From the UHGV virus genome UHGV-1374897: 64,000 nt of DNA; one strand, written 5' to 3'. The position numbers and the translations under genes are program-made. Position 1 is the stretch's first letter; each line of letters opens with the position of its first letter. The notes under the pieces are model-generated. The model was given only the letters and a program-made list of their open reading frames with translations. It did not search any database and was not told the DNA's origin. Positions 4,599 through 57,388 of this stretch are shown piece by piece. The stretch comes from a virus.

Positions 4599-4603
4599 AC
4601 GCC

Positions 4604-33205: not shown

Positions 33206-33555
33206 GAACGACCTACTCCACAACCAGAACCGTACAGAAGGGCCAGAGCAATCAACAAACCTTGCTCGGTCTCCTTCTGAATATTGACCTCCTTGACCCT
33301 TCGCTCCCTCTCGACTATGTTCGTGTCCTTCTGTACATGCACGCCAATGGCTTCGAGCAGAAACATGAGAATCCGACAATAAGTGAGGGCACTCGCATTC
33401 CCATATCTTCTCTTTACTCTATCCTGCGCAAGCTGGAAGAAAAGGGGTATCTTGAATACGAGGGAGTGAGGGGGTCGAGGAAACAAACTAAAAGTAAACT
33501 AACTCCGAAAGGTATCACTTTCTGTCGTGACATCTTCCGGCCACACACAATCTAA
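33202..33555 (+). CDS. PadR/MarR-like winged-helix transcriptional regulator (tentative)
   Basis: YSILRKLEEKGYLEYEGV...KLTPKG matches a wHTH recognition-helix-plus-wing pattern. Confidence 0.4.
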   Translation: MRTTYSTTRTVQKGQSNQQTLLGLLLNIDLLDPSLPLDYVRVLLYMHANGFEQKHENPTISEGTRIPISSLYSILRKLEEKGYLEYEGVRGSRKQTKSKLTPKGITFCRDIFRPHTI

Positions 33556-35885: not shown

Positions 35886-35956
35886 GGACGTTAAACTCCC
35901 ACGGAACCCACGGAACCCACGGCCAAATGGTCACAATGGGTTCCGTGGGTTCTCCG
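35886..35956. promoter_or_regulatory. Inverted repeat built from three tandem ACGGAACCC units and the reverse-complement GGGTTCCGTGGGTT
   Basis: 14-bp perfect arms AACCCACGGAACCC / GGGTTCCGTGGGTT with a loop of about 20 nt. Lies between gene 35028 and promoter 35982. Confidence 0.5.
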
Positions 35957-38041: not shown

Positions 38042-38052
38042 ACGAATAAATC

Positions 38053-38292
38053 ATGAACGACAAAGTAGCTATTTTAGAAGACAAAGGATTTGGATTCTTC
38101 CGAGTAACTCACTGTGGAAGTGTCATTGCAGATTTTCTTTACTGCACTGGCTCTGGTGAACAAGGATATATGACACGAGATTCCGCAAAGAAACTGGCAA
38201 CGAAGATTGCCCGCTACGTAGTTAGCAGAGGGACAGTTTGTACCATCGAGGGAGTATCACTTAACCAAATCTATTTCAACACCGATGACTGA
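38053..38292 (+). CDS. Small paralog 1 of 7 (subfamily A), 79 aa
   Basis: GFFRV...CGSVIADFLYC...GYMTRDSAKKLATKIARYV. Shares 28 nt identically with paralog 6. Confidence 0.6.
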   Translation: MNDKVAILEDKGFGFFRVTHCGSVIADFLYCTGSGEQGYMTRDSAKKLATKIARYVVSRGTVCTIEGVSLNQIYFNTDD

Positions 38293-38521
38293 CACTCTAA
38301 ATATTACCACCGTAGATGACCCCGATATCGGGTTTTTCTGGGTCCTGCTTGAAAACTGTTGCGTTGCCACCTTTTACTATTGCGTGAAAGATGATAGTGG
38401 CTTCTTCACCAAGGAGCAAGCTAAGAAACTGGCCGACAAGCTCTCCCGCAAAATTGAGAAGAGCATGATTATCGAAACCGAAAAGGGAATCAAATTGGAA
38501 AGGAACAACATCAATGAATAA
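38285..38521 (+). CDS. Small paralog 2 of 7 (subfamily B), 78 aa
   Basis: GFFWVLLENCCVATFYYC...GFFTKEQAKKLADKLSRKIEKS. ATGA overlap with its neighbour. Confidence 0.6.
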   Translation: MTDTLNITTVDDPDIGFFWVLLENCCVATFYYCVKDDSGFFTKEQAKKLADKLSRKIEKSMIIETEKGIKLERNNINE

Positions 38522-38750
38522 CGATTCAGATACCCGTGTTTATGACCTCCCTACTAGCGGAATGTTCCGCGTCAGGCACAGAGGAAGTTGCGTCGCCGTT
38601 TTCAACTATTGCGTGGCAGATGAAAGCGGCTTCTTCACCAAGAAGCAAGCTAAGAAACTAGCCATCAAGCTCGCCCGCAAAATTGAGAAGAGCACGGTCA
38701 TAGAAACAAAGATGGGAATCAAACTTAAAAGGAACAATACTAATGACTGA
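38514..38750 (+). CDS. Small paralog 3 of 7 (subfamily B), 78 aa
   Basis: GMFRVRHRGSCVAVFNYC...GFFTKKQAKKLAIKLARKIEKS. Confidence 0.6.
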   Translation: MNNDSDTRVYDLPTSGMFRVRHRGSCVAVFNYCVADESGFFTKKQAKKLAIKLARKIEKSTVIETKMGIKLKRNNTND

Positions 38751-38985
38751 CACTCTAAATATTACCACCGTAGATGACCCCATTGCCGGATTTTTCCGGG
38801 TCATGCTTGAAAACTGTTGCGTTGCCGCCTTTTACTATTGCACGGAAGGCGAGGAAGGACATTTCACCAAGAAGCAAGCCAAGAAGCTGACCGAGAAGCT
38901 AGTCCGCAAAATTGAAAATAGTACGACCATCAAAACCAAAAAAGGATTTAAACTTAAAAGGAACAACAATGACCAACGAGATTAG
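38743..38985 (+). CDS. Small paralog 4 of 7 (subfamily B), 80 aa
   Basis: GFFRVMLENCCVAAFYYC...GHFTKKQAKKLTEKLVRKIENS. The first 36 nt of the coding sequence are identical to paralog 2. Confidence 0.6.
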   Translation: MTDTLNITTVDDPIAGFFRVMLENCCVAAFYYCTEGEEGHFTKKQAKKLTEKLVRKIENSTTIKTKKGFKLKRNNNDQRD

Positions 38986-39217
38986 TATTGTAGATAATAA
39001 GAGAGTAGGAATCCTCAAGGTGAAATATGAGGGAGATACCTTTGCCATCTTTAACTATTGTCAGGAGGGAGACGAGAAGGAACAGTGTTATCCCACGCGC
39101 GAAAGGGCTATAGAAATGGCGAAGATGGTTGCTCGCCATCTCATCCACGCGAATCCCGTTATGACAGAAAGGGGCATTGACCTTTACCCGACAGACTATA
39201 CAATCCAAGACGAATAA
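38969..39217 (+). CDS. Small paralog 5 of 7 (divergent subfamily C), 82 aa
   Basis: GDTFAIFNYCQEG...YPTRERAIEMAKMVARHL. Longer ORF call is 38912..39217. Confidence 0.5.
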   Translation: MTNEISIVDNKRVGILKVKYEGDTFAIFNYCQEGDEKEQCYPTRERAIEMAKMVARHLIHANPVMTERGIDLYPTDYTIQDE

Positions 39218-39220
39218 ATC

Positions 39221-39466
39221 ATGAATGACAAAGTAAGAATTTTCGAGAATAAAATGCTCGGCGGGTTCGAAGTGGAATATGATGGGATTGCCGTTGCCCA
39301 ATTTTTCTACTACACAGAGTGGGACGAACGGGGCTTCATGACGCGAGACGCGGCAAAGAAACTGGCAACGAAGATTGCCCACAAAATTGAGAAGAGCATG
39401 ATTATCGAAACCGAAAAGGGAATCAAACTACTTAAACCGAAAAGGAACAACAATGACCAACGATAA
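39221..39466 (+). CDS. Small paralog 6 of 7 (subfamily A), 81 aa
   Basis: GGFEVEYDGIAVAQFFYY...GFMTRDAAKKLATKIAHKIEKSMIIETEKGIKL. Shares 46 nt identically with paralog 2. Confidence 0.6.
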   Translation: MNDKVRIFENKMLGGFEVEYDGIAVAQFFYYTEWDERGFMTRDAAKKLATKIAHKIEKSMIIETEKGIKLLKPKRNNNDQR

Positions 39467-39710
39467 ATATCTACTGGAAACCTTCTTAATGGAATACCCG
39501 CGAGCAGGAATCATTGCGGTGATTCATCGAAACTACCGTATCGCTATGTTCCCCTATCACAGGAATGAGGATGAGAAGGGACTTCCGACAAGAGACTTCG
39601 CCCTCGAAATGGCAATCGAACTTCGTGACAAGATTAAGAAATGCACGACGGAAGAATCCGACACGGGGATTACCTTCGTCGAAAAGGAACAACCAATCTT
39701 CAATGACTAA
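39453..39710 (+). CDS. Small paralog 7 of 7 (divergent subfamily C), 85 aa
   Basis: IAMFPYHRNEDEKGLPTRDFALEMAIELRDKIKK. Confidence 0.5.
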   Translation: MTNDKYLLETFLMEYPRAGIIAVIHRNYRIAMFPYHRNEDEKGLPTRDFALEMAIELRDKIKKCTTEESDTGITFVEKEQPIFND

Positions 39711-41330: not shown

Positions 41331-41360
41331 CTTGACCCGTTAAACCCCAAATGATAACAT
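41331..41360 (+). promoter_or_regulatory. Sigma70-like promoter TTGACC-N18-TAACAT, followed by hairpin GGCGGCAAGG/CCTTGCCGCC abutting the start codon of gene 41386
   Basis: TTGACC at 41331-41336 and TAACAT at 41355-41360. Confidence 0.35.
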
Positions 41361-41385
41361 GGCGGCAAGGTAATTCCTTGCCGCC

Positions 41386-41808
41386 ATGTTTAAATTCGTC
41401 GCACAGCTTAACACCATTGACGGCAACGTGTGGACTTTGCTTCTCACTCGTATCGTCGATGAAATGTCTCCCGCATATCTCGTATTTGTGGGAGTTATTT
41501 ACGTGGCAGTAAAGCTGGCATATAAGTACCTCTCAAAAAAGATAGAGTTTAGTCTTGACAAGGAGAAGTCCTTTCTCATATTATTGCAAGAAGCTCTAAG
41601 AGTTATATCCGAGTTGGATGATTCTCTAGACCAATTACATGGAAAAATAGACAATCTACGAAGCGACCATGAAGAGATAATCGACCGCGCCTTCTGCGCT
41701 ATCTCGCAACAAGATACACCCCCCTCCGACAGAAATGAAACTATTCAATCTGTTCCGAAAAAGCCCCGAGCAGGAACAACTCGAAAACGAGTTGTCTCGG
41801 AATCTTAG
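41386..41808 (+). CDS. Membrane-anchored protein: holin or spanin candidate
   Basis: N-terminal TM helix LVFVGVIYVAVKLAYKYL followed by a coiled-coil. Adjacent to the endolysin. Confidence 0.4.
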   Translation: MFKFVAQLNTIDGNVWTLLLTRIVDEMSPAYLVFVGVIYVAVKLAYKYLSKKIEFSLDKEKSFLILLQEALRVISELDDSLDQLHGKIDNLRSDHEEIIDRAFCAISQQDTPPSDRNETIQSVPKKPRAGTTRKRVVSES

Positions 41809-42247: not shown

Positions 42248-45122
42248 CACTCCGGCCTCCAACCCACAGCCTCCGACGATACCCATTGGAACCACGGATT
42301 CCTCGTGGCGCAATGGGTTCAGTCCTGACAGGCCAATGGGTGAGCCGATAATTAACTTTCCCACTCCTGTGGTAAAGAACGTGATGTTCTTCGTTGAGAG
42401 GATTGCCAAGAATCCCAGCGAGATTACCATTGAATTGGGAACTCCGTTCGTACCCACCGCAGGTACGACCTTCCTCCCGTTCATGCGGGATGCAGTTCTC
42501 GTGCATGTCGAACCCGTCAATGAGGCGGCGAGACAGCACGTTTATCGTTTCTACTACATGGTCCCGCCGGAACAGCAGTTCCGATATAACATTCAGGACA
42601 TGAAGAAAATCCGTGACGGCTATACGTTGAAAGATACTGCCGCTACGGGTAAGTTCATGGGTCCGGATGCAGACACGGAAGAGTTGAAGGACTTCTACGA
42701 GATTACACGGGAATGGGTGGAACCCACGGATTCCGCGTATGCCCCGCTCCCTCTTGGCTCGTTTGACCCCAGCAACGAAAAGCTTGACCCTGACTTCTAT
42801 GACCAGCATTTCTACACGGCATACGATGCCCAGCTGGTATATGAAGAAGTAGCCCAGTTCGAAGAGGAACACCTGCGCAAGTACTTTCGTAGGGTCATCC
42901 GTGTGTATAAAACCCTGCCCGGCCCGGTGGTTAAAGAGTTCGTCCCTTATAACATTTGGCAGAAGGGAGATACGGTGTGGGATGAAGGTGGTCCGGGAAC
43001 GTCCCTGCCCGAATCTGAATGGGTGGCGCAGACTGCAATTAAGTTATCGAGAGAGGTCTGGGCCGCGCCGCTTTGGCCCGTCGATGGCGGAGGGAAGGAA
43101 CCGGGACAGGCTCGCATTCCTCACATGCCCCTCCTTGAACTGGACAATAAGCCCGTTAGTGCTGGCTGGGACAAGGGCAGTTATCCGAGTACGCAGATGT
43201 ACACCCTTGTATCTATGTACAAACGGAACAGTAACATTGCGGAGAAAGAGGAACAGAACAGCCTCTCCGGTAATTGTTGTAACCCTGATTCCCGTTTTGT
43301 CCGGTGCATCAATACAACCGTGACGACTAGCCAGTCCGTTGACTGGACAGCGAACGGCAATGTCCCGGCGATTGACCCTCCTGACCCCGGCGAGAACTGT
43401 AGCCAATGGCGTGTAGATTCCTCTGTGGTGGTCCATGAAGGATATAGCCACAAGGAAACGCGAAAGAGTTGCACCACCTACGACCAGATTGATGAATTCT
43501 GGGAATCCTCGTTTGACAGGATAACCAATCAGGTCTATCCTGTACTGCGGAAGATTGTACATAATCCGAGCACTGACTTCGATACCGATTGGCAGAAGGA
43601 AGGATTCACCAAATACACGGATGCCGTGGGCAATACCTACTATGGCCGGAAGCTGGAAACCCCGGAAACCGAGGAAGCCATTACCATCCCCGACACGCCG
43701 TGGACCAAAATCGGATATAACCTTTCTGACTTTACTGCGGTTGAGGATTCGGTCCCGGCCACGGGTATGCTCCATACCATGTCCCTCATCAATGGATGGA
43801 ACGACCCCAGTTACCCCCAGTTCGCGAATACTTTTGCATTGCTCGGCTCGTTTAGTACGGACAACCAGCATGCTGACCGAGGTATGAACGTGGGCATCCG
43901 GTTTAAGGGTATGCGCTGGTGGAACATATATATCCAGAACAGCTATCCCGAAGTCCAATCCCCCGGCACGATTGAAGCAGGATATTATTACAACGCCCCC
44001 AACCCTGACGGTCCGTGGCTGACACAGAACGGCCAGTACAAGATTGGGATGGAAGCGATTATCCGTGATACCCTCTATGCGGAGGGCGTAACGAGCGCAC
44101 CGTGGACGTTCCCACTGGGCGTCATGGATGGTACTGCCATCTACCAGCGAGCCAATGGATATAACCCAGAGATGAAATTCTCCGCGGGCACATTGCCCTC
44201 TGGTATTGGCAACGTATATCTGGATGTGGAGAACGGCCAGCTGAACATGACCGCCATTGTCATTAACCCCAATGGCAATGCCATCAATGGAATCATCCCC
44301 ATCCACATCAACGGGACAGAGGTCTTTAATATTGAGGTAGTCACGACTAGCAATACAGGACAACCCGACCTGCCGGAACCTACGGTCAATACATCGAACG
44401 GCGCGAAGACTAAATACCGTGCCGGGAACTATGTCCTTAACGCCGCAGTTGCCGAGAAGATTACCCTGACCTACGACGGAACGAAGTTCCCCTACTTCCA
44501 GTTCGGTGTCACTATATGCAGTCTCCGAGGCAATACGTTCAAGGTCACGATGAGCGACAAAATTCAGCGCGTCGTCCTGCGCCAATGGGTGAACCCCTGC
44601 TACGCCGTAGATAGTTACATGCAGATTCCGGGAATCGGGTACTACAAAAAATATACTACGACGATGAACTACAGTTTTCCCGCCGTGCTCGGTACAGTTC
44701 GTTGGGTTCCGTGGACTACGAGGCCCGACCTTTCTGGCAAGAATGCTGGACAGTACTTCCCGCAGACCACGATGAAGAGGGACAGCTATTCCGGTCCCTG
44801 CACTGCCGTGGTTGAAGAGGCATTCTCCCCTGACGGTACATGGCCTAAGGGCTGGGGCCTAGGTACTTCACCGCAGTTCACGACGAACAGCGGGTACTTC
44901 TCCACGCCGCTTTGCGATTACCGTATGCCCGCATGTCTCCATGCGCCCATGAATGTCTCCGTAACAATCGGCAATCAGGATGCCAAGTGGCTTCCCGGTG
45001 CGTTCAATACCACGTTCGCCGGAACCTCCGAGACTGACTGGAAACCCGTGACCTCCTATTACGCATCCCCATGGAACGGCGGCATGTTGTGCAAGAAAGT
45101 AACAATCTATCCTCCCAATTAA
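42231..45122 (+). CDS. Large structural (tail or receptor-binding) protein, about 963 aa
   Basis: Longer ORF call is 42165..45122; the probable start is the ATG at 42231. Asn/Gly/Thr/Trp-rich beta-type composition. Confidence 0.5.
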   Translation: MALIPNTPASNPQPPTIPIGTTDSSWRNGFSPDRPMGEPIINFPTPVVKNVMFFVERIAKNPSEITIELGTPFVPTAGTTFLPFMRDAVLVHVEPVNEAARQHVYRFYYMVPPEQQFRYNIQDMKKIRDGYTLKDTAATGKFMGPDADTEELKDFYEITREWVEPTDSAYAPLPLGSFDPSNEKLDPDFYDQHFYTAYDAQLVYEEVAQFEEEHLRKYFRRVIRVYKTLPGPVVKEFVPYNIWQKGDTVWDEGGPGTSLPESEWVAQTAIKLSREVWAAPLWPVDGGGKEPGQARIPHMPLLELDNKPVSAGWDKGSYPSTQMYTLVSMYKRNSNIAEKEEQNSLSGNCCNPDSRFVRCINTTVTTSQSVDWTANGNVPAIDPPDPGENCSQWRVDSSVVVHEGYSHKETRKSCTTYDQIDEFWESSFDRITNQVYPVLRKIVHNPSTDFDTDWQKEGFTKYTDAVGNTYYGRKLETPETEEAITIPDTPWTKIGYNLSDFTAVEDSVPATGMLHTMSLINGWNDPSYPQFANTFALLGSFSTDNQHADRGMNVGIRFKGMRWWNIYIQNSYPEVQSPGTIEAGYYYNAPNPDGPWLTQNGQYKIGMEAIIRDTLYAEGVTSAPWTFPLGVMDGTAIYQRANGYNPEMKFSAGTLPSGIGNVYLDVENGQLNMTAIVINPNGNAINGIIPIHINGTEVFNIEVVTTSNTGQPDLPEPTVNTSNGAKTKYRAGNYVLNAAVAEKITLTYDGTKFPYFQFGVTICSLRGNTFKVTMSDKIQRVVLRQWVNPCYAVDSYMQIPGIGYYKKYTTTMNYSFPAVLGTVRWVPWTTRPDLSGKNAGQYFPQTTMKRDSYSGPCTAVVEEAFSPDGTWPKGWGLGTSPQFTTNSGYFSTPLCDYRMPACLHAPMNVSVTIGNQDAKWLPGAFNTTFAGTSETDWKPVTSYYASPWNGGMLCKKVTIYPPN

Positions 45123-45873: not shown

Positions 45874-46971
45874 ATGGCTACCAAACGTACAGACATATCG
45901 AGCGAGACGAGCGCGAGCGGGGGCATCCCCGCCGCCAAGTCCATTAAGCAGAAGACGATGGACGAGGTGCTTCCGAAGACGAACCCCGACATCCCCCTCC
46001 GTCCAATGAATAACAACGACCCGAACAAACCCGTCGACGCGAAGGAGATGAACACCATCGCCGCGGCCAATAGTAACCACGGCATCAAGAATCCCCCCGC
46101 ATCCGCGGCTCCCACGGCGGCCCAGTCTCCTAGTCCCTATGGGCGGGGGATTACTGAGGTCGACCCCAACAGCGCGGCCTACGCCGCCCAGCAACGGGCG
46201 ACCTATGCGGCGGGCATGCAACAAGCCGCGGCGGGGAAACTCTCTGCGGAGGACAGGCTTATGCTTCGTGGCGTGGACCAGAACATAAGCCGTGGGCAGA
46301 TGCCTGTCATATCTCCGACTATGCCGACACAAGCGACGGCTTCCACGGGTTCCAAGGGTTCCGCTCCAACCGCTAGCCCCGACACCTCTATGGCTGGGTT
46401 CTATGCGTATGCGGAGAAGAAGCTTGGCCCGGAGAAGTTCCAGATATTCATGAACATGCCGGATGCGGATAGGAACGCGATGTATAGCAAGTTTGTAGAG
46501 AGCCAGACCAAGAACGTGCCCGCCGCGGGAGCTACCGCGGGAACTACTGCCGCCCCCTCTGGCTCTAGGTTCCCCGCCTCTGCTCTCCCCTCCGGCAATT
46601 CCTCCATACCTACGAGCGTCCCGACGACTGCGGGTACTGGCACGGCCGAGAATATGCTACGAACCTTGAGGGATGAAACCGCCAGCCCCGAAGCGAGAGC
46701 ACAGGCGCAAACATACCTCCGCGTCCGAACCATGTACGCCCAGCCGGAAAAGTTTGGTAAGGAGATTAAGACCCTCGAAAAACTGGAACGGGCTAAAATA
46801 CAAGAACTGCGCAACATGTTCAGGAATCGGCACAACATCCGGGACCCCCGCTTCGCTCGGCAATACGCGCAGTATAAAGCCCTACAGAAGAAAGACCCGC
46901 AAGCGAGGCTCGCCCTCTACACTGAACTGATGAAGGGACCGGAGTTCACTCACTTGGACTTCCGAAAATAA
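45874..46971 (+). CDS. Ala/Pro/Thr-rich low-complexity protein, 365 aa
   Basis: ORF with a basic helical C-terminus. Confidence 0.45.
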   Translation: MATKRTDISSETSASGGIPAAKSIKQKTMDEVLPKTNPDIPLRPMNNNDPNKPVDAKEMNTIAAANSNHGIKNPPASAAPTAAQSPSPYGRGITEVDPNSAAYAAQQRATYAAGMQQAAAGKLSAEDRLMLRGVDQNISRGQMPVISPTMPTQATASTGSKGSAPTASPDTSMAGFYAYAEKKLGPEKFQIFMNMPDADRNAMYSKFVESQTKNVPAAGATAGTTAAPSGSRFPASALPSGNSSIPTSVPTTAGTGTAENMLRTLRDETASPEARAQAQTYLRVRTMYAQPEKFGKEIKTLEKLERAKIQELRNMFRNRHNIRDPRFARQYAQYKALQKKDPQARLALYTELMKGPEFTHLDFRK

Positions 46972-46993: not shown

Positions 46994-47048
46994 TTGACCC
47001 TTGCCCCACTCATGATAGGATAGCGAAGACCCACATGAGTGGGGCAAA
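46994..47048 (+). promoter_or_regulatory. Promoter TTGACC-N16-TAGGAT for the giant gene, with a 14-bp perfect inverted repeat clamped around the -10 box
   Basis: TTGACC at 46994-46999 and TAGGAT at 47016-47021. Inverted-repeat arms TTGCCCCACTCATG (47001-47014) and CATGAGTGGGGCAA (47034-47047). Confidence 0.5.
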
Positions 47049-47073
47049 CTTATTATACTAATACTCAACAAAT

Positions 47074-50000
47074 ATGGCCATTGACTTTAGTACCGCCAAT
47101 ATGTCCGACTTCACTCCGAAGTCGGGAAGCAGTATTGCACGTGAACAGCGAGCCGTAGAAAGGCACGCCGCGTGGCAAGAGACGCAAGCGCAGAAACAAG
47201 AAGACAGAAAACAGAAAGCACTGGACCGCGAGCAAAGGCTAGCGGAAAAGAGACAGACCCGTGCGGAGAAAGCCGCAGAAGCCACCGCAGAGTTTGACAC
47301 CTTTATCGTTAAGTCCGTGGATGCCTTTGCGGAGAAACAGAAAAAGGATGCGGAACACGCGAAGAATGTAGAATGGCAAGATAAATCCCGCGCCCATACG
47401 GAACAAGAATGGAAAACCGCCGAGGAAAATAAAGCCCTCGACATCTTGAACAAAGGAAACCGTGGGTACAGCTTTGAGGGAATCGACTACATGAAAGACT
47501 ATGTAGAGCGCGGAGAGGATGCACTGGTTGATTTGACGGCCGCCGCTCGTGGCGATAAGGATGCTATTAAAAAGATTACGAATAATACGGGCATCGTCGC
47601 AGTCCTTTCCTCCGAACTTCCTCCCCAACATTCTGCATTCTTATCCCGCTCTGGCTTCGGAAGTGGAGAGGACGGGAACCCCGTCGTAACGGAAAAGTTC
47701 CTCGCTATTGCCGCGGACAGAAACCGTAACGCAAAGGCGGTGGCCAAATCCATTGCCACCACAATGGAGAAGGCCCGGAAGGATTACCTCAACAAGAATC
47801 TAGATGTTGTGTCTGGTAAACCTACGGCACAAGCCATCGAGACCGCACCTATTGCTTACACCGCAGAAGAAATAGAAAGCGTCATCAATACGATTAGGCG
47901 CGAAGACATTGGCAACTATCGTGCCGCTAAGGCTCTTTACGACAAACACCGCTCTTCTTCGACGGAGGGCGTGCAGAAGAAAACCCCCAGCCAAACGAGC
48001 GTGGGGGAGCTTGGCGTTGGCGAATTCTCTGATTCAGCACCTTCATTTACTGGGAATGTTTTTGCTGAACTCGCCAACCTTTCCAAGTCTCCCAGCAAAA
48101 TGTTCCGACTTGTCCGCGACTACGGGGATTACCTGTCCCGGAGTACGGAAGATATTAAATCCCCGGAAGCCAAGGAATCCGATTCCCTTTCTCCCGCCGC
48201 TAAACGTGCAGGGGAAATGGCAGTAGCGCAGGTTAAAGCCGTGGACAACATTGTCTCGCGGATGGAAGAGAGCTACACCGGATTGGATGCCGTGGGACTA
48301 AGGGATGCTCTCCTTAACCCCGAAGCAGTAGCTTCTGCGGCATTGGCCCTTGCCCCCGGCGTGGACATGGATGCAGTGCGCGAACGAGCAAATACCTTAG
48401 CCACCGAGCGTCATGCCGTGGTAACCTCCGACTACCAGAAAGCAATGGCTGATGCCATGATGGAAGAATTGGCTACAAGGTTTCCGGGGGTTCCGAAGAA
48501 TATATTACTACAGGCCGGGACGACGAAACTGATTCAGGACTATACCACCAAAGCTACACCGAGAGGCACCCTCATGGATGCAGTCAAAGGCGCACTGGCT
48601 AACTACCGAAGCGCGGCAGGACAAGTTGCGGACGTACTTACCTTCCAACCGGGGAATAGTGTGGGCAAGACCACTGACCCAATGAGTACGATGGAATGGA
48701 GGAAGGGAACGAGGCACGGCTCTTGGGAGTATGGTGTAGTGGGAGGCCCTGCCTTTGAAGTAGGTCCCGAACAGTTGAAGGAATACATGGCCCAGTACCA
48801 TATTGAAAGTACTCGCGATGCCCTTAACTCCCTCTCCCATGCCGCACGTATGGGTGACTTGGGCGTAGGTCGTGGCAGTCTCTTTGCGTACAACCCGCAC
48901 ACCAAGGAAGTTGATACGAACGCCACACTCGAACTGAACCCCAATGCTCTCTACAATGATAAGCTGATGGACCAGAGCATAGAGGCTCTCCGTGCTAGTG
49001 GCGCGGACGAAGGTCTCATCAATCGCACCATTGAGAAGTTCCAGAACCTCCGCAAGAAATCCGCACAGGAACTTGTGAAGGACAACATTGCATTGGACGA
49101 GACGCTGGGGACGCTTCGCGATACGTGGCTTGGCTCCGGCTTGCAGTTCAACCCTATCTTGACTGAATCCATGAAGCATCTGGACAAGCACCTTTCCTTC
49201 AAGAATTTTTACAACGAACAGAAGGAAGTGGGCAAGAGTGACGAGGACATCCTCTCCGCATGGCAGGAGAAAGGGCAAGACACCATCAACTCTGTTCTCC
49301 GTGGGTTGCAGATAGGTACACACAAGGCAATCGACCTTGGGACAGGTGCCGCCTATGGTGCTCTTCTCTTTGCACAGAATGCAGTTGGCAGTCGTGCGGC
49401 GATGGAACATACCCGCACCCTCTGGGACCAGCTGAACAAAAAACAGGAAGCGGAAGCTGAACTTGTTCGAGGCAATATCCTTGCGGATTATACTGCGGAA
49501 ATCGCTAACCTCGGCTACCAAATGGTAGCAACCGCGGGGGCTGGTAAAGTTGGCGGCCTCGCTGGGCGTGCACTGGAACGTACCGCGCTATCGCGGTTCG
49601 CGAAGGCAACGGCTAACGTTGTAGCGAAGCGGGCAGAAGCTCTTGTCCCTGCCGCCCGTCCGGGATTGGCGGGACGTTTGAGTGGAACTATTCAGCGCAA
49701 CCTCGACAACCTTGCGGCGTTGAACCTCGAACGGGCAGGAGCTGGAGCCGGGGTAAATCTTAGCATCATCTCGCAGGTTGCACCGAATGCTTACTCCGAC
49801 ATCTTCTATACCATTTATGATAGGGAGATGGAAGGGAAGGAACCGACTGCCGAGAACACGAACAGGGCACAGAGCATTGCCAACATGCGTGCCCTCTTTG
49901 GTGCGGCTCTCGTATCTACTGGTAGTACTCTCATCAACAACCGCGCAGGTATGGATTCCTTCATGCGTAAGATTGTTGGGGCTAAAAACCTTCGCGGTCA

Positions 50001-53000
50001 ATCTCCATTCCAAACTCTTGAACGGAAGATGGCCGGATGGAGAAGCAAGCCATTTAAGGAGATGAACACGAAGAAAAAGACGTTTGCCGTTGCTTCCTAT
50101 CTGTACAGCACGAGCAAGGCCGTAGTGGAAGGAGCCACCGAAGAACTGGCAGACGAATTCCAAGAATGGGCATTTACCGAACTGGTGAAGAACGGAGAAA
50201 TCTCTGAATCTTCTATTGCCACTACCGACCAAGTGATTAGCGGTGCCATAAAGATTGCTTTCCTCGGAGGTATCGGCGGCTACGTTGGTAGCCACTTAGC
50301 TGGTGAAGGGAACATACGTTTCCAAACCGAAGCCGCTCCAACTCTCGATGTAAAGGATGCTACTTCCATGCTACCGGATATTACGAAAGATGCGAGCAAC
50401 ATCATCGAGGAAACGGGCAAAGCCATTACCAAAAACAATGTGCCGGAAAGCTTGGTAGAAACCGGAAAGAAGGTTATCGAGATTGCCGGGGAGAAGGGGG
50501 ATGCCGCGGAAGTTGCCCGCGAATGGGTGGACAAATCCATTGCCCATGAAAGTCTAGTTGTCTCCGACGAAACCCGCAAGGCATGGGTGGATGGCGCAGT
50601 CCGTATGGGTATCAGCAACTTCACCCAGTTCCGCAACCTAGTTGAACGGGCCTCCGAAATACATACCTATGAGGGCAGTGCCGCGGCAAGCTCCTTCATG
50701 GCAGAAGCCATTAACGACTTGCCCAATACCCTGTCATTCCCAAATAAGGAAAACCTCGACACCATGCGAACCATGTTGTCCGAAGCCCTTGATGCTATGG
50801 GAGACCGGGTTCAGGTTATCGAAGTAGACGACGACCTGTCCATCATTACTACAGGGGACGAGGACCTTGATGCCGCCATTAACGTTATTAACGGATTGAC
50901 GGAAGCCGCGGCTACCACGGAATCCCCGGCTACCACGGAATCCCCGGCTACCACGGAACCCAAGGAATCCCCGGTAGCTATTGCCCGGAAGGAGAGGGAC
51001 AATGCTATTGCCCCCATCACTGCTATGGTAGAGACGGGAGTAGTTACCCCCAGTTCCGTGGAAACCGTGGATAACATGGATGCGGCAATCGCCTCGTTCG
51101 ATAGTAATACTGGTGCGTGGCTCTCCTATGGTACGCCATTGGAGCGCGGCGCGAAGCTCGTCTCCTTGAACGAGATGACCGGGATTAACGCCCCCATGAT
51201 TACCAGCAACACGGGAGAAACCATTGTCATCGCTCCGCACGCAAGCATGTACAACACAGGTGAGGGAGGTACCCCCAGCACCAAGTGGGGAGACAAGGTC
51301 TCCGCTCTCAATCTCCCGACGGATGGGACTGGCGCAAATGCCTATGGCATCCTTTCGGACCTTCAAGCTAATGCCTCCCCCGCACAGGCCGCGGCCATTG
51401 ATGGAGTGCTCCGCGCACTGCATGCCGCTGGTTTGGATGTTGCTATCCGAGCCACCAATGCCCCGGCGAACATCTCTTCCCCCGCCAGTATCACCTACAT
51501 GAACGGCACGGACGGGAAGCTTGTCGGCGGTGTCATTGACCTGTACGTGGACCGGGACAATGCGATTGAAAGCGTAACGGGAACGGTACTACACGAAGTC
51601 ATCCACCTCATTGACCGTCATCTTCGTGCCACCAACGCGGACTATTCCCAGCGGATGGATAAGATTAGAAGCGCGATTGCAGAGAACTACAACAATATTG
51701 TTGATAGTCTCTCCGCTATGTATGATGCTAGCGTGGACATCAATGAGATGAACGCCATCGCCGCGCTCGCTTCTGACCTCAACTATGGTCTCCGCGGCCC
51801 GGACGAATTTGCCAGTGTCGCGTTCTCCAATCCTGTCATGAACTTCATGATAGCGGAAGCTAGCGGAGACAATATAACCATCACGGATTTGGCTCGCTAT
51901 GCCGAAGCGGCTGGAGGCAGGAGGCCCATTCATGTGCGCCTCATCGAATGGCTTAAGGATTTGATTAGGGACGTGCAACAAACTGCGGACGCTATGGACG
52001 GAACCACCGCCGCAGAACACGTGGCTGAATGGGATTCCTATGTGGCCCGCATCGCGGACATGACCCCCGGCAAGTGGTTCGACATGCCTCGCACTCCGTC
52101 ATGGAAGGTAGACGATACGGATTATACTATGGGCAACGGGGTAGATTATTTTAACCCGATGGCCTATGAGACTGACATGACCCGAAGACTGTCCTTCGGT
52201 CTGGCCGCAGAAATCATTGGCACGAATGCCGGGAACTGGGTAACCAGTATTAAGAACGGATGGCTGGGTGCAACCAAGAACTGGGACAAGGCTGGCATCA
52301 ATGTTAAGTCCGAGGAACAGAAGCTGGTTGTGCTGGAACAAATGGCCAACGTGAATGCGGCATACGAACGTAGTATTAAACGCATTGACAAAATTGGCGA
52401 TATGCTTCAACGCCGTGCGGATAAGCTGGGCTGGGATGCCGCTACGCGAAAGAAATGGAGCAAGTCCATTCTTGACATGTCGGGGAATATGGACAACGAT
52501 ATTGACCCTGAAACTGTTGCACGCATTAACGCAGAGGCTCAAGCAGAAGTTCGTCAGCATGAACAGACCCGCGACTTCCGTATCGCGTTGGCTAAGAAGA
52601 CCGTCACCGATGCCGTCAATAGGCACGCGGAAGCGGTGCGTCTGGCTAACTCCCTTGCGCTTAATAGTGAAGGGAGATTGGAAATCAACGACATGATGCG
52701 CCGGATTAAAGACATGAGCGTCAAGGGATATGGTGCCATGCTGGACAAGCAGGTAGCTCTCCCCATGCTTTCCCAGCAGATTCACAAATCGCTCTCCGAC
52801 CTTGGCTCTCGTATCTCCGCGACGGGGAATGCCAATCTGGAAACCACCTACTTTGGCCTTGCCCGCGACACACAAAACTATCTCGCGGATATGATTAACG
52901 AGGTGGATAGTCCCTTCTCTATGGATGAACTTCTGGACAGGTGGTCCAACCTTCGCAATGACTTCCTCTATGCGGAGAGTACAAACCATCCCACCATCGT

Positions 53001-56000
53001 CCCTATGATTCAGGACATCGCTAAGACACGGGCCGAAGCTAAACAAATCATCCGGGAAGCCAAGGATGATTTCTACGCCGCAACAAAGCGAGCGGGCGTA
53101 ACTCGCGCTGGCGTAGCTACCCCTGCTGGTTCCGTGTGGCTGAAACGGGACAACGCTATCCTCAATGCACGCCGTCAAAAACAAGCGGAGTATATGGCTA
53201 AGCGGGATGCCGCTGAACAGTGGCTTCTGTCACAGGGGGTTGTAGGTCAACTGGTCCACAATGTCATCGCCAATTCCCGTAAAGAAATTGCCGCAACGCA
53301 AATCTCTATTGCCAAGCTCATTGGAGATAGCCGCATGGCTGACAACGCCGCGGAGATGAATTATCTTCATCGCACCTACATGGCCGTAGGACGCCATGCC
53401 GGAGACTTCACCCGGACGATGAAGGACATCATCGCAAACCCCAACGGAGAACTGGCGCAGAAATACGACGGTCTGACGAAACTGTTGCAGGAAGCCGCAA
53501 TCTCTCATGCCGAAGCGCACCAGAGAGAACTGTCCGAAAACGTAAGCCAAGTGCTGGACAACATGCAGGCATTGGCCGCGCTCCACGACGAGTTGAAACT
53601 TCCGCTGGTGTCAGCTCCCACGGGAGCCTCCGCGAATTATAAACTCCTGTTCGAGGGTGTAGCCAAGAACTACAGGAACAGGGAAATTCTGGACTTCATT
53701 CAGAACAACTTCGGCCAGGTTCAAATGCTTGCAGATTTGAGGGACGGCCACAACATCAGTGCCATATATAATAAGGCCATGAGCATGATAGCACAGGCAG
53801 ACTATCGCACGAAGTCAAAGATGACAGAGGCGAAGGAAACTCTGGACATGAATGCCAGAGATAGTTTCCTCGCTGATGTCTTCTCCAGCCTTCCGGGAAA
53901 AACGATTGCGGACAAAATTGGCAGTCTTCAATCCCCGGCATCCGTGGCTTCCGAAGTGAACAAGGCCATCCCCACTATCCCGACTTCGGCCATTGACCAG
54001 ATATGGAACACGCCCGATATGAATGCCGCAGAACGACTGGACAAGACGCTCAATCTTCTTCGCGGTCAGGCTGGCGTTCTCATGAGGATGAACGGCATGG
54101 GCAACGTCATCTCCGCTACCGACTTGAAAGCGTTGCAATATCCGGAACTCTCCCGCCTCGCAGTGAACGATGCCATGAAGGCCATTGACGAAGTTCTGTC
54201 CAAGAAGAGGACGAATGAAGATGCGCTGGCCCAGCGGAAACGCTTGCCCGAATGGCAGAGGAAAGCTATGTATGAACTTAGCGACCTCACCATTGGGGAT
54301 GCCATTGGGACGTTACAGAATACCCTATCCATGCAGTCGAAGATTGCCGTGAACCAGTTGCTTGCTGACGAGTATGCCTCCGTACTGAAAGCGCAGGGTG
54401 TGGTCGTACCCCCGAATTCCACAAACCGTACCTCGGACATGGTGGAAATCTCCTTGAAGAATACGAAGAATGCGTTGAACGGAATGTACGCCGACAAGGA
54501 TGTAGCCGATGCCATCTACCGCATCTACAGACCGAGCGACGACATCCTGAATAACAGGACGGACGACTATAAGGAGGTGCGCAAGTACTGGCAGAAGTCC
54601 GGCAAGGGGCAAGGATGGTGGAATAAGGCGGGTGGCTTGGCTAACCTTTCTGTCTTAATAGCGAGTCCTAATTCCACGTTACGTAACTTATATGGTACAG
54701 TAGCTCAAATGACCCATGCGGGTGCACTCCCATTCACGGGGAGTAAAGACATCGCAAACCTTGTCGGGGACTGGGTCCAGTTGCGTAAGCTATGGTGGCT
54801 ATCACAGGGCAAGGACCTTGCTTCACAGGCTTCCGCGGATAGACTGCTGGCCGCGGAAGACAGGTACAACGAGAAGATTCGCTACTGGCAAGAGCTTGGT
54901 CTGCTGGACGCAGGTCAAGGGGAGTTCCTGCGCAACGTCTGGAAGTCTGACGAGTTCAGTAAGATGGCAGGAGAATTTGAAGAAGTGAATGAGGATTCCT
55001 TCTTCAAACTGGCCGAAGCTCTGAACGAGAAACAGGAACGGACGAAGGGCGAGGTGGCTAAGGATGCCGCCAAGATGGCGGGCAAAGTCGTAGCATGGCC
55101 CATCAAAACGATGTCCTTCGCCTATGGCTTGCCGGACGCGGCGGCCAAGATTGTTCTCTTCACTAACCAGAGAGCGATTGCCGATACCCAATTAAAGGTA
55201 CAACTGGCGCGGGCGAAGGGCAAGGCCAACCCCAATGCGCGGGACCAGATACTCATTGACGCGAGCCAGACTACCCAGAGTTGGGATGCTTATGTGGACA
55301 GGTATACTGCCCACATGGTGAAGAGCTTGCTCCCCACGGGTTCGCGTACTCCTTCGTGGGTGAAAACCCTGAATATAGTTGCGGCTCCGTTCTTCATGTT
55401 CCAGTACCATACCTTCCAGTCTGTAGCCTACAACCTTGGCCACGCCATAGGTGAAGGGGTAGACGGTGTGTGGGCTATCAATAACGGCATGAAGAAGGAG
55501 GGGGCTTACCTCTTGGGACGCGCTATCCTTCGTACCGCGGGTTCCTTAGTAACTATTTCTGCAACCTCTGCGGTCTCTTCCTGGGTTGCCCGACAGATTA
55601 TCGCCAGTGTCTTGGGAGATGACGATGACCGTAAAATCATTGACGACGCGGAAGTCATGAGGAAGCTGGCAGATAGTGGGCTAATTCCTGACTATGATAA
55701 GTTCGGGGACTTGATTGGCATCATAGATATGAAGCGACATGAGTTCGAGTATTTGAACCTTGAATACATGAACCCGTTCAAGACCATCAGGGTGTTAGCC
55801 AAAACCCTGCCCAGCCTCTTCATGGATATGGATGTGGACAAGTGGGGGATGAACAAGGTTGCCGAACTGAAAAACCTGCTGGAAAATACGGTGCTTGAAG
55901 AATCCCTCCTTCTGAATGCCGCTTCTGAATTGTTTAATGAGGAAGACTTCAATTACAAGCATAGCCTCTCCGGTGATGAAAGCGTCAACGTTCTCCCGGC

Positions 56001-56730
56001 AGTCGGCAACGCAATCCTGTTGGCCGCAGGGCTGAACCCCTCGTTCGGCAGTGGACATACATGGCAAGTCCTTGAACGATTCGCGACGGTTGCCAATAAA
56101 AAGATTCCCTTCTACGGCTGGGCAGTCAAGTCAGGTAAACAATTGTTTAGCGATACACCTGACATGAGTGCCGCGGCATACGGGTTACAGTCCTTGGGTG
56201 CGGGCCTCCGTCGTCCGAAGGATTTGACCGAAGCCCTTGCCGCCGGGTTAAAGAATGCCAACGCGGCAGTCACTAAGTCGAAGCGAATGAGCGTCCTTCG
56301 TCCGGACTTCTACAAGAGAATGGAATCCGGAGTGGATGTGGAATCTATGGAAGCCGTGGAAACCGCGGATGCCGTGAAGAATTTCACCAAGCTAGTCAAT
56401 AGTGTCCGGTTTGTTACGGAAATTACAAACATGCTTGACCCCGCTCTGCGGAAGGAAGTTCTGGCTTCCGCGATTGAGAGTTCCGGTATGAGTGCCAAGA
56501 CCTACGGCGCGGCCATGAAAGGCATCATGCCCTACATCATTAGCCCGCAAGCAGGACGTGAGGCTATCGCGAAGCTCAACCGTGAATTGCAGAAGTCTAA
56601 TACCACGGACGAGGGCAAACGCCTAATCGAAGAGCAGAAGAAACTCATTATCAACCTCATGAGGAAGGGTAGCATTCAGATTGATGGGGCATTGAGTGTG
56701 GAGGAAATTCATAATCGGATGAAACAGTAA
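47074..56730 (+). CDS. Giant 3218-aa protein with zincin-like HExxH motif: candidate virion-associated, ejected or polyvalent protein
   Basis: Single uninterrupted ORF. Extremely charged K/E/R/Q coiled-coil N-terminus. HEVIHLIDRH at nt 51592-51621 (aa about 1507). TTESPA linker repeats at 50913-50966. Confidence 0.7.
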   Translation: MAIDFSTANMSDFTPKSGSSIAREQRAVERHAAWQETQAQKQEDRKQKALDREQRLAEKRQTRAEKAAEATAEFDTFIVKSVDAFAEKQKKDAEHAKNVEWQDKSRAHTEQEWKTAEENKALDILNKGNRGYSFEGIDYMKDYVERGEDALVDLTAAARGDKDAIKKITNNTGIVAVLSSELPPQHSAFLSRSGFGSGEDGNPVVTEKFLAIAADRNRNAKAVAKSIATTMEKARKDYLNKNLDVVSGKPTAQAIETAPIAYTAEEIESVINTIRREDIGNYRAAKALYDKHRSSSTEGVQKKTPSQTSVGELGVGEFSDSAPSFTGNVFAELANLSKSPSKMFRLVRDYGDYLSRSTEDIKSPEAKESDSLSPAAKRAGEMAVAQVKAVDNIVSRMEESYTGLDAVGLRDALLNPEAVASAALALAPGVDMDAVRERANTLATERHAVVTSDYQKAMADAMMEELATRFPGVPKNILLQAGTTKLIQDYTTKATPRGTLMDAVKGALANYRSAAGQVADVLTFQPGNSVGKTTDPMSTMEWRKGTRHGSWEYGVVGGPAFEVGPEQLKEYMAQYHIESTRDALNSLSHAARMGDLGVGRGSLFAYNPHTKEVDTNATLELNPNALYNDKLMDQSIEALRASGADEGLINRTIEKFQNLRKKSAQELVKDNIALDETLGTLRDTWLGSGLQFNPILTESMKHLDKHLSFKNFYNEQKEVGKSDEDILSAWQEKGQDTINSVLRGLQIGTHKAIDLGTGAAYGALLFAQNAVGSRAAMEHTRTLWDQLNKKQEAEAELVRGNILADYTAEIANLGYQMVATAGAGKVGGLAGRALERTALSRFAKATANVVAKRAEALVPAARPGLAGRLSGTIQRNLDNLAALNLERAGAGAGVNLSIISQVAPNAYSDIFYTIYDREMEGKEPTAENTNRAQSIANMRALFGAALVSTGSTLINNRAGMDSFMRKIVGAKNLRGQSPFQTLERKMAGWRSKPFKEMNTKKKTFAVASYLYSTSKAVVEGATEELADEFQEWAFTELVKNGEISESSIATTDQVISGAIKIAFLGGIGGYVGSHLAGEGNIRFQTEAAPTLDVKDATSMLPDITKDASNIIEETGKAITKNNVPESLVETGKKVIEIAGEKGDAAEVAREWVDKSIAHESLVVSDETRKAWVDGAVRMGISNFTQFRNLVERASEIHTYEGSAAASSFMAEAINDLPNTLSFPNKENLDTMRTMLSEALDAMGDRVQVIEVDDDLSIITTGDEDLDAAINVINGLTEAAATTESPATTESPATTEPKESPVAIARKERDNAIAPITAMVETGVVTPSSVETVDNMDAAIASFDSNTGAWLSYGTPLERGAKLVSLNEMTGINAPMITSNTGETIVIAPHASMYNTGEGGTPSTKWGDKVSALNLPTDGTGANAYGILSDLQANASPAQAAAIDGVLRALHAAGLDVAIRATNAPANISSPASITYMNGTDGKLVGGVIDLYVDRDNAIESVTGTVLHEVIHLIDRHLRATNADYSQRMDKIRSAIAENYNNIVDSLSAMYDASVDINEMNAIAALASDLNYGLRGPDEFASVAFSNPVMNFMIAEASGDNITITDLARYAEAAGGRRPIHVRLIEWLKDLIRDVQQTADAMDGTTAAEHVAEWDSYVARIADMTPGKWFDMPRTPSWKVDDTDYTMGNGVDYFNPMAYETDMTRRLSFGLAAEIIGTNAGNWVTSIKNGWLGATKNWDKAGINVKSEEQKLVVLEQMANVNAAYERSIKRIDKIGDMLQRRADKLGWDAATRKKWSKSILDMSGNMDNDIDPETVARINAEAQAEVRQHEQTRDFRIALAKKTVTDAVNRHAEAVRLANSLALNSEGRLEINDMMRRIKDMSVKGYGAMLDKQVALPMLSQQIHKSLSDLGSRISATGNANLETTYFGLARDTQNYLADMINEVDSPFSMDELLDRWSNLRNDFLYAESTNHPTIVPMIQDIAKTRAEAKQIIREAKDDFYAATKRAGVTRAGVATPAGSVWLKRDNAILNARRQKQAEYMAKRDAAEQWLLSQGVVGQLVHNVIANSRKEIAATQISIAKLIGDSRMADNAAEMNYLHRTYMAVGRHAGDFTRTMKDIIANPNGELAQKYDGLTKLLQEAAISHAEAHQRELSENVSQVLDNMQALAALHDELKLPLVSAPTGASANYKLLFEGVAKNYRNREILDFIQNNFGQVQMLADLRDGHNISAIYNKAMSMIAQADYRTKSKMTEAKETLDMNARDSFLADVFSSLPGKTIADKIGSLQSPASVASEVNKAIPTIPTSAIDQIWNTPDMNAAERLDKTLNLLRGQAGVLMRMNGMGNVISATDLKALQYPELSRLAVNDAMKAIDEVLSKKRTNEDALAQRKRLPEWQRKAMYELSDLTIGDAIGTLQNTLSMQSKIAVNQLLADEYASVLKAQGVVVPPNSTNRTSDMVEISLKNTKNALNGMYADKDVADAIYRIYRPSDDILNNRTDDYKEVRKYWQKSGKGQGWWNKAGGLANLSVLIASPNSTLRNLYGTVAQMTHAGALPFTGSKDIANLVGDWVQLRKLWWLSQGKDLASQASADRLLAAEDRYNEKIRYWQELGLLDAGQGEFLRNVWKSDEFSKMAGEFEEVNEDSFFKLAEALNEKQERTKGEVAKDAAKMAGKVVAWPIKTMSFAYGLPDAAAKIVLFTNQRAIADTQLKVQLARAKGKANPNARDQILIDASQTTQSWDAYVDRYTAHMVKSLLPTGSRTPSWVKTLNIVAAPFFMFQYHTFQSVAYNLGHAIGEGVDGVWAINNGMKKEGAYLLGRAILRTAGSLVTISATSAVSSWVARQIIASVLGDDDDRKIIDDAEVMRKLADSGLIPDYDKFGDLIGIIDMKRHEFEYLNLEYMNPFKTIRVLAKTLPSLFMDMDVDKWGMNKVAELKNLLENTVLEESLLLNAASELFNEEDFNYKHSLSGDESVNVLPAVGNAILLAAGLNPSFGSGHTWQVLERFATVANKKIPFYGWAVKSGKQLFSDTPDMSAAAYGLQSLGAGLRRPKDLTEALAAGLKNANAAVTKSKRMSVLRPDFYKRMESGVDVESMEAVETADAVKNFTKLVNSVRFVTEITNMLDPALRKEVLASAIESSGMSAKTYGAAMKGIMPYIISPQAGREAIAKLNRELQKSNTTDEGKRLIEEQKKLIINLMRKGSIQIDGALSVEEIHNRMKQ

Positions 56731-56747: not shown

Positions 56748-56786
56748 TTGACCTTCGGGGGCATGGGAGATATAATTCTCCCATGC
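56748..56786 (+). promoter_or_regulatory. Promoter TTGACC-N17-TATAAT with a 10-bp perfect palindrome GCATGGGAGA / TCTCCCATGC flanking the -10 box. Predicted leaderless start at ATG 56783.
   Basis: TTGACC at 56748-56753 and TATAAT at 56771-56776. Palindrome arms at 56761-56770 and 56777-56786. Confidence 0.5.
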
Positions 56787-57388
56787 CCTCTTTTCGTATA
56801 GTACCCAATCATATTATGGCCACCCCTCCGGGAGGCTGGAAGTTTGTTGTCCCCGAATCCATGAGTGTCAGGCTCAAGGGAACCAAGGTTTCCGCGGGTT
56901 CACTGGAACAACTCCGCAAATCAGTCGCCCGTCTCTTCATGAATAACGGAGAACCCTTTCAGGTTGCGCTCTTTGAATCAGAGCTTTGCGCTTCTCTCCC
57001 TCCCCAGTACTGCACCACCTGCGGTGATAAGGGAATTGAATGGAAGGAGTATGAACCCATGAGTGCCAAGAAGATATTGGCCTTCTTCGGTACTATGGTT
57101 CTCTGGTATCGACGGGGACACAGGTTTGTAGACGAGGCAGAAGCTCGCCGCCGCTATGCTATCTGCGCCTCCTGTCCGTATGCTACCTCTACGCCTCCCC
57201 CGGATTTAGAGAAGCAGGGGTGCGCTACCTGCGGTGCCGAAGGAGCTGGCCGCAAATTCCTCAAGGAAAAAATTTCCGGGCTGGCAGACCTGACTAATGG
57301 GGCGGCCCCTCTCTATTGTACCTTATGTGGTTGCGACCTATCAGTAAAGGCTCACTTCGATATTGAATCTGACTGCTGGCTAAAATAG
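56783..57388 (+). CDS. Cys-rich zinc-binding protein, 201 aa
   Basis: CTTCGDKG, CASCPY...CATCGAEG and CTLCGCD cysteine clusters. Confidence 0.5.
   Translation: MPSFRIVPNHIMATPPGGWKFVVPESMSVRLKGTKVSAGSLEQLRKSVARLFMNNGEPFQVALFESELCASLPPQYCTTCGDKGIEWKEYEPMSAKKILAFFGTMVLWYRRGHRFVDEAEARRRYAICASCPYATSTPPPDLEKQGCATCGAEGAGRKFLKEKISGLADLTNGAAPLYCTLCGCDLSVKAHFDIESDCWLK

Follow-up and report, generated by a model that had tools for sequence, protein, structure and literature searches.

Compensatory changes in a hairpin interleaved with a putative promoter ahead of a giant phage gene

Why should a long palindrome be laid across the -10 element of the promoter that appears to serve the largest gene of a phage, and does it act there as DNA, by binding a protein, or as RNA? 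The window in which this question arises, a stretch of 64,000 nucleotides from the virus genome UHGV-1374897, is most of the genome (about 68-70 kb) of an uncultured tailed phage. It encodes a VapE-type primase-helicase, PolA, a SNF2-type helicase, a PD-(D/E)XK exonuclease, a large terminase and an NAD ligase; no tRNA genes were found in the window, and no part of it matches an Rfam family. The deposited phage collection holds no match by DNA or by TerL protein, and the structural genes, including the giant ORF of 3218 aa (47074-56730, + strand), match no Pfam or PHROG family. The family is extremely rare: with the first 1200 aa as query, only 10 relatives were found among 1.84 billion representative proteins, and none of 185,579 species genomes contains the giant protein. 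Its C-terminal third is well conserved, and an HExxH-type motif (H1507, E1508 and H1511, plus D1514 and H1516) is invariant down to 25% identity.

The palindrome and the promoter elements at site 1

The locus, here called site 1, lies in a 102-nt gap between the stop codon of a 365-aa ORF (45874-46971, + strand, from the ORF list), whose transcripts would read into the hairpin, and the start of the giant ORF at 47074. The 365-aa protein has homologs at 68-97% identity on 28 viral contigs, and searches of Pfam and PHROG with it gave no matches. A preliminary description of this DNA reported a 14-bp perfect palindrome clamped around the -10 hexamer of a TTGACC-N16-TAGGAT promoter, and both parts of that description hold. 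The left arm (47001-47014) reads TTGCCCCACTCATG, and the right arm (47034-47047), which begins after an interval of 19 nt, is its exact reverse complement, CATGAGTGGGGCAA, with 100% complementarity; TTGACC occupies 46994-46999 and is followed by a 16-nt spacer, with TAGGAT at 47016-47021 between the arms. Perfect Watson-Crick inverted repeats of at least 12 bp, with loops of 3-20 nt, occur at 5 places in the window, all of them intergenic, against a mean of 0.06 in 100 dinucleotide-preserving shuffles of the window; for at least 14 bp, the figures are 3 places and 0.01. Shuffled sequence contains repeats like that of site 1 about 100-fold less often, and the palindrome is not a chance feature.

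To compare site 1 and three of its sister sites (sites 2-4, described below) we used relatives from scans of viral contigs, tiered by identity of the giant protein: group A at 88-98%, group B at about 50%, group C at 28% and group D at 25-27%. Most of these relatives come from one IMG/VR dataset, so that the haplotype counts given here overstate independence. Only the inner 12 bp of the palindrome (47003-47014 with 47034-47045) are conserved as pairs, because 47002, a T in the window, is C in most relatives and gives a C.A mismatch against 47046. The 5' arm of this conserved helix falls within the promoter spacer. The 19-nt loop (47015-47033) contains the -10 hexamer and the predicted transcription start near 47028, and the 3' arm would form the 5' end of the giant-gene mRNA. 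Beyond it, 47048-47073 make up an A/U-rich tail (ACTTATTATACTAAT...), with 5 T in 10, and then the remaining 5' UTR; TATTA is conserved here, and there is neither a canonical U-tract nor a Shine-Dalgarno (SD) motif.

A sigma-70-like promoter very probably sits at site 1, since the -35 element and the TG-extended -10 element are invariant while the flanking proteins are only about 50% identical. TTGACC matches the consensus TTGACA at 5 of 6 positions, and the 10 distinct haplotypes of groups A and B all share its TTGAC. The extended -10 element, TGaTAGGAT, consists of TG at 47013-47014 (promoter positions -15/-14) and the hexamer at 47016-47021, which matches at 4 of 6 positions including A2 and T6; groups A and B show no variation in TGATAG or in the final T. 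The 5' arm ends with this same TG, which is unaltered in every relative, whereas the loop bases just 3' of the -10 element differ among them (AGCG or GTTG). The TG extension probably compensates for the weak hexamer, and this role is probably the reason for the constancy of that end of the stem. The start was placed 7 nt past the -10 element, a distance calibrated on the 5-7 nt that separate the -10 element from the ATG in leaderless genes, and on this numbering the dyad covers about -27 to +20 of the promoter.

Those leaderless genes are part of a wider pattern. The motif CTTGAC(A/C)-N16/17-TAnnnT recurs at many intergenic regions of the window, and some 15 intergenic sites combine the -35 context C/T-TTGAC with leaderless spacing. 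An ATG lies 5-7 nt past the -10 element at 2506, 14578, 17626, 29667 and 35982, as well as at site 2 (56748). This is the spacing of leaderless mRNAs, and is indirect evidence that these are real promoters with starts about 7 nt past the -10 element. By a loose definition, an SD-like motif precedes 7 of 59 genes, about the chance level, and the leaders are A/C-rich. Probable leaderless genes together with scarce SD motifs point to a host with SD-independent translation; for that reason, use of TTGAC/TAnnnT by the host polymerase is an assumption.

It could be argued that there is no promoter at all, that the hairpin is simply an RNA element between two genes, that TTGACC and TAGGAT are fortuitous, and that the giant gene is transcribed from further upstream. 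The 4/6 hexamer lends itself to this argument, as does the abundance of promoter-like matches (25 found against 16 expected in 19 kb). The invariance of TTGAC, TG and TAG..T in groups A and B while adjoining bases change speaks for a promoter, as do the recurrence of the C/T-TTGAC context with leaderless spacing and the five hairpins in the window that overlap such motifs in one register class, and we consider its absence quite unlikely. Two other readings of the nearby sequence were rejected. A second promoter 3' of the hairpin (TATTAT/TATACT, 47051-47059) has no acceptable -35 element, and T47056 is G in several relatives. A leaderless mini-ORF beginning at ATG 47035 would lie 13 nt from the -10 element, and the ATG is lost in one relative (L015).

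Sister sites, covariation and the operator question

The preliminary description had mentioned a second promoter of the same design at 56748-56786, and this site 2 (56748-56790, + strand) is indeed of that kind. TTGACC at 56748-56753, a spacer of 17 nt and TATAAT at 56771-56776 make up the promoter, and TATAAT itself forms the 6-nt loop between the arms GGGCATGGGAGA and TCTCCCATGCCC, in a 12-bp perfect repeat that extends to 14 pairs when G.U is counted (56757-56770 and 56777-56790); TTTTCG follows. A leaderless start codon, ATG 56783, falls inside the 3' arm. In group B the gene can start only at this ATG, 6 nt past the -10 element, from which it follows that the site 2 gene would be leaderless and TCTTTTCG coding.

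Beyond these two sites we found three more (7519-7580, 26957-27002 and 41332-41390), so that in all five promoters in the window are overlapped by a strong hairpin (7519, 26957, 41332, 46994 and 56748). At site 3 (26957-27010, + strand), TTGACG-N17-TAAACT has its -10 element in a loop of 11-13 nt between arms at 26962-26976 and 26988-27002, followed by AAATTTTT, and the ATG of the next gene is at 27017. Site 4 (41332-41390, + strand) combines TTGACC-N17-TAACAT with a 15-bp perfect hairpin (41356-41370 and 41376-41390) that has a 5-nt loop, and the start codon at 41386 lies within the 3' arm. Site 5 (7519-7580, + strand) has TTGACA-N16-TACATT and a 12-pair hairpin (7544-7555 and 7569-7580) with a 13-nt loop, its predicted start being close to the end of the 5' arm. 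Other junctions of the genome (14467-14611 and 29563-29700) have a terminator-like hairpin and a promoter in series, and for this reason the overlapping sites look like compacted versions of ordinary junctions. A regulatory hairpin over a gene start is seen again at 25120-25148, just 3' of a 418-aa gene (23839-25095), where a terminator-like hairpin of 12 pairs is followed by AATTTTTATC and holds the start codon of the next gene (25132) in its loop.

In group A, site 1 is nearly invariant, even where identity of the upstream protein drops to 68%. In group B the promoter holds its register (TTGAC[CG], N16, extended -10 TGATAGACT) and the base of the helix, GCCCC/GGGGC, is retained, but the inner stem, ACTCATG/CATGAGT in group A, has become TGCTTTGA/TCGAAGCA or CGCTTTG/CAAAGCG. 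Between groups A and B, 5 of the 12 core pairs are altered on both sides (19 cells; 10 distinct haplotypes), and pair 23-55 is altered again within group B. Every sequence except L015, which has one A.C, pairs at all 12 core positions. Over all 14 pairs, 90% of cells are paired, against 37-48% when the partners are slid, and the covariation score of 0.402 compares with 0.161 in shuffles and is reached by none of 500 shuffles. As read from this alignment the compensatory changes are at least two independent events, one between groups A and B and one within B, and there may be only two or three. The pattern indicates that selection at site 1 acts on structure, not on sequence.

The exceptional sequence, L015, also carries an insertion: at 4200-5510 an IS605-type TnpB element, with HTH_OrfB_IS605, OrfB_IS605 and Cas12f1-like TNB domains and a split ORF, sits between the 365-aa gene and an intact site 1 module. 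The right end of this element, CTTTCTAG(T/C)GTAGCGAATCGTTGAAGCGGTAA, recurs without a TnpB gene at 13595-13640 in the window (within the region 13595-13662) and upstream of 3001 in L051. These TnpB-less right ends at operon junctions look like element remnants or omega-RNA-like sequences.

The sister sites vary in a similar way. At site 2, three compensatory pairs distinguish L037 (GGGAGA/TCTCCC to GGGGAG/CTCCCT), G.U wobbles occur in L037 and L050, and 96% of cells are paired overall. Site 4 in group B keeps TTTACA-N17-TA(T/C)CAT, the hairpin, now followed by TTTTTATTT, and the start codon. Nearly all of the one-sided changes at site 4 that are fixed in many genomes give G.U on the + strand, and a change from ATG to GTG retains the start codon while making a U.G pair. 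For sites 2-4 together, most fixed one-sided changes are G.U wobbles, which pair only on the + strand, and in the common haplotypes the + strand RNA folds 3-8 kcal/mol better than the - strand. At site 1 the same comparison does not tell the strands apart: two U.G pairs occur in group B, but group A has the C.A where the helix ends, and L015 has its A.C.

In groups C and D a hairpin overlaps a promoter 3' of the giant gene, and the registers differ. In L148 the -10 element is in the 5' arm of a hairpin with a UUCG loop and an TTTTTATT tail; in L152 the -35 element is in the 5' arm and the -10 element at the end of the 3' arm; in L155 everything from -35 to -10 lies inside a 22-pair stem with G.U, or, if only the 9-bp Watson-Crick core is counted, the -35 element is in the loop. 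L152 and L155 both have a leaderless ATG 6 nt past the -10 element. Group B has its own set, with 3 of 6 promoter-like sites in 29.6 kb overlapping a strong hairpin. Throughout the four groups, every predicted start falls 3' of the whole 5' arm or of most of it.

How do these observations bear on what the palindrome was first taken for? The preliminary description saw in the dyad an operator for a repressor, an activator or an anti-sigma protein, and in the pair of sites the mark of a dedicated phage transcription factor with a small late regulon. A dimeric factor of phage or host origin would suit a dyad that reaches from about -27 to +20, and the phage does encode at least one weak candidate: the protein at 33202-33555, suggested to be PadR-like, has winged-helix and helix-turn-helix Pfam matches with E values of 1e-4 to 1e-3, although all of these are below the gathering scores. 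The sites themselves do not support such a factor. The arms of the five hairpins share no common motif, their best ungapped matches being 5-8 bases long, and the window contains no further copies of the arms that form dyads with up to 2 mismatches. The proposed half-site CATGNNNNGG does not fit site 2 and shows hardly any enrichment, with 20 and 33 matches in the window against about 16 expected; as a shared half-site or regulon motif, both CATGNNNNGG and CATG were rejected, CATG being over-represented window-wide (414 against 250 expected) and the arms having no motif in common. With loops of 19, 6, 11-13, 5 and 13 nt at sites 1-5, the spacing of the half-sites is not fixed. The G.U wobbles at sites 2-4 break the dyad symmetry of the DNA, the arms covary in relatives rather than being conserved, and their register against the promoter shifts in the distant relatives. 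A sequence-specific dimer would have to be a different protein at each site. Both the operator and the regulon built on it are unsupported on this evidence, and we judge an operator at site 1 to be highly improbable.

A palindrome could also act as DNA by extruding as a cruciform. In supercoiled phage DNA this might alter promoter activity, for example by presenting the -10 element as a single-stranded loop, and the -10 element is indeed in the loop at sites 1-3. Extrusion is favored by a center of A/T only, such as the 6 nt at site 2, and hindered by large loops, such as the 11-19 nt found at other sites. The G.T wobbles fixed in common haplotypes also stand against cruciforms, as does the placement of the -10 or -35 element in an arm, not the loop, in the distant relatives. 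If cruciforms did form, opening of the promoters of the giant gene and its sister genes would depend on DNA topology, but we would be surprised to find this. Cruciforms acting in addition to an RNA terminator, so that these promoters were structure-gated ones of the sigma-70 type with supercoiling-dependent opening, seem scarcely more than conceivable.

A proposed pair of transcripts from one DNA segment

We have high confidence, from the covariation and from the invariance of the promoter elements, that an RNA hairpin under selection overlaps a real promoter at site 1. We infer that its action is at the level of RNA rather than DNA, and the start site and the extent of termination are estimates of the same kind. 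RNA reading through from upstream is predicted to fold strongly at sites 1-4 (-26.8, -29.6, -27.4 and -28.9 kcal/mol, z from -6.3 to -8.0); at site 1 z is -6.5 and the stem begins about 30 nt past the stop at 46971. RNA beginning at the predicted +1 of the same four sites has no significant structure (z from -0.7 to +1.2).

The reading we favor, and think rather probable, is that the site 1 hairpin ends, insulates or 3'-stabilizes read-through RNA, while the promoter embedded in it starts a new transcript from within. Transcripts of the co-directional upstream genes would carry both arms, and some 30 nt past the upstream stop would fold into a stem of 12-14 bp (about -25 kcal/mol) that terminates, insulates or 3'-stabilizes the upstream message. 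Polymerase at the embedded TTGACC-N16-TGaTAGGAT promoter would initiate near 47028, 3' of the 5' arm, giving an RNA with the 3' arm only, which could form no hairpin and would run on into the giant gene. The same DNA would stop or mark read-through RNA and yet be invisible to RNA from its own promoter, with terminator and promoter packed into about 100 nt. Since read-through would be stopped or marked and own-promoter RNA left unaffected, expression of the giant gene would depend on its own promoter.

How far the hairpins resemble terminators differs from site to site. At site 2 the hairpin with TTTTCG is the top + strand terminator-like match, and its terminator character is good. Site 3 is fair, with a U-tract after AAA and the AAATTTTT tail invariant in relatives; site 4 is fair in the window and canonical in group B, where a U-tract is present. 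Sites 2 and 4, with loops of 6 and 5 nt, have the short loop (about 3-8 nt) expected of a terminator. At the junction 5' of the giant gene in group C, a terminator was detected computationally, with 11 pairs followed by the U-tract-bearing TTTCTTGTAT. Site 1 itself has weak terminator character: its loop is long (19 nt, or 17 nt in group B), the tail that follows is ACTTATTATA in group A or GCATTGTATT in group B, with only TATTA conserved, and a scan for consensus terminators did not call it. Its 19-nt loop and the want of a canonical U-tract in both A and B mean that site 1 fails a strict definition of an intrinsic terminator. We are moderately confident that the site 1 hairpin acts as a terminator; termination may be partial, given the poor U-tract, and the hairpin may instead mainly stabilize or process the upstream RNA.

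This last thought can be taken further, keeping the same hairpin and the same promoter but making site 1 a processing site of the RNase III type, or a protective 3' stem, past which read-through continues. Clear selection for pairing, the missing U-tract of site 1 in both group A and group B, and the occurrence of other long perfect stems with no T-tail (35903-35953 and 7544-7580) would all accord with processing or protection. The sister sites 2-4, and the same junction in group C, do have T-tracts, and a stem of 12 bp is short for RNase III, whose classical substrates have longer stems. We think a processing or protective stem unlikely, while regarding it as a serious competitor of termination or insulation at this site.

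If the hairpin does end or mark incoming transcripts and the promoter within it launches a new one immune to the same signal, this phage family, with genomes of some 70 kb, makes its operon junctions out of a single fused element of about 60 nt. Neighboring late genes, including that for the 3218-aa giant protein, could then be expressed independently across very short intergenic regions. It would be a natural case, documented by compensatory substitutions, of discrimination between transcripts by promoter of origin, in several registers of hairpin and promoter, and compact insulators of such a kind would be of practical interest for synthetic circuits. For annotation there is a warning as well: a palindrome over a -10 element need not be an operator.

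Known systems and other features of the genome

The component parts, a sigma-70-like promoter and a terminator-like hairpin, are of known kinds. What is unusual is their systematic interleaving, with the 5' arm in the spacer, the -10 element in the loop and sometimes a leaderless start codon in the 3' arm. Also unusual are the use of this layout at some five junctions in each genome and its survival, in shifting registers, in relatives with protein identity as low as 25%. Literature searches found no direct precedent for a -10 element within a terminator loop. An ordinary serial junction of intrinsic terminator and promoter also has a G+C-rich stem-loop after a stop codon, a T-rich tail (like those of sites 2-4) and, to start transcription anew, a sigma-70-like promoter, but here the elements are interleaved, the predicted start lies between the arms, and site 1 has its 19-nt loop and poor U-tract.

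A closer parallel may be fold-back inhibition in IS10/Tn10 (and in IS50 and others). The element's own promoter starts inside the inverted repeat, so that only external transcripts can fold, and with the start codon in the 3' arm this protects the element from external read-through. The predicted start at site 1 (about 47028) likewise lies between the arms, with folding that would differ by origin of the transcript, and the start codon is in the 3' arm at site 2 (ATG 56783) and site 4 (ATG 41386). At site 1, unlike IS10, the ATG (47074) is 26 nt past the 3' arm, and translational occlusion is not evident; the phage hairpins are, moreover, terminator-like, and they stand at operon junctions, not before a transposase gene.

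Lambda sib/tI, which governs retroregulation of int, is a further case in which the promoter of origin sets the structure and the fate of an RNA. There the difference arises at the 3' end, where transcripts either terminate or, when antiterminated, read through and decay by way of RNase III. One DNA segment gives different RNA structures by promoter of origin in lambda and, as predicted, here, but in the phage sites the difference would arise at the 5' end. The retroregulation of int by sib/tI is mentioned in passing in PMC3890552.

A giant virion-type gene with hairpin-associated promoters also recalls phage N4, and we considered and rejected promoters of that type. The giant protein has no Pfam or PHROG match and no detectable homology to RNA polymerase or N4, and neither the dimensions of stem and loop nor the sequences fit. 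The promoters of the N4 virion RNA polymerase have 5-7 bp stems, 3-nt loops and a conserved sequence and are used as DNA hairpins, whereas here the stems are of 12-15 bp, the loops of 5-19 nt, the sequences unrelated and the -35/-10 motifs ordinary.

Several other features of the window deserve mention. An 11-mer, GGAACCCACGG, has 21 matches in the window at up to 1 mismatch, 10 of them exact, against 1.3 expected (for example at 3499-3509, 7234-7244, 14636-14646, 22495-22505, 35903-35922 and 42719-42729). The matches are mostly on the + strand, in coding and noncoding DNA alike; copies of the 11-mer make up the arms of a hairpin of 17 pairs (35903-35953), and two stand in tandem at 3496-3527. 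This could be a protein-binding, Chi-like or packaging-related motif. It is unrelated to the site 1 palindrome and, if the phage has a protein-binding motif, is the better candidate for one.

Two noncoding regions of about 840 nt (1156-1998 and 2882-3722) are dense in short repeats, among them CAATCGGG five times at 1320-1359, CCGGATTCC-like units and an AT-rich block at 3360-3440, and may be an origin or serve early control. A promoter-like site at 2878 is followed by a strong terminator at 3021-3065, and together they would yield a noncoding RNA of about 150 nt.

In a 718-aa protein (27017-29173), the N-terminal half is confined to this phage family, while counterparts of the C-terminal half (aa 380-716, 28154-29170) with 88-94% identity occur on many viral contigs, unrelated to the phage and about 35 kb long. 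Some of these are UViGs from isolate genomes, among them IMG UViGs 2846409915, 2846881592 and 2840745675. The C-terminal half looks like an exchanged receptor-binding domain. Among species genomes its only match, at 59%, is in an Oscillospiraceae MAG; we rejected an Oscillospiraceae host, for which this match is too weak and with which the scarcity of SD sequences conflicts.

The region 38042-39564 holds at least three tandem copies, about 229 nt apart, of a family of small paralogous ORFs (71% matches), each opening with ATGA(C/A)TGAC.... In the 409-aa ORF at 22397-23626, units of 15-18 nt (GACGAGACACAGAAC and the like), repeated in tandem and in frame at 22637-22767, encode an acidic region rich in D, E, N and Q.
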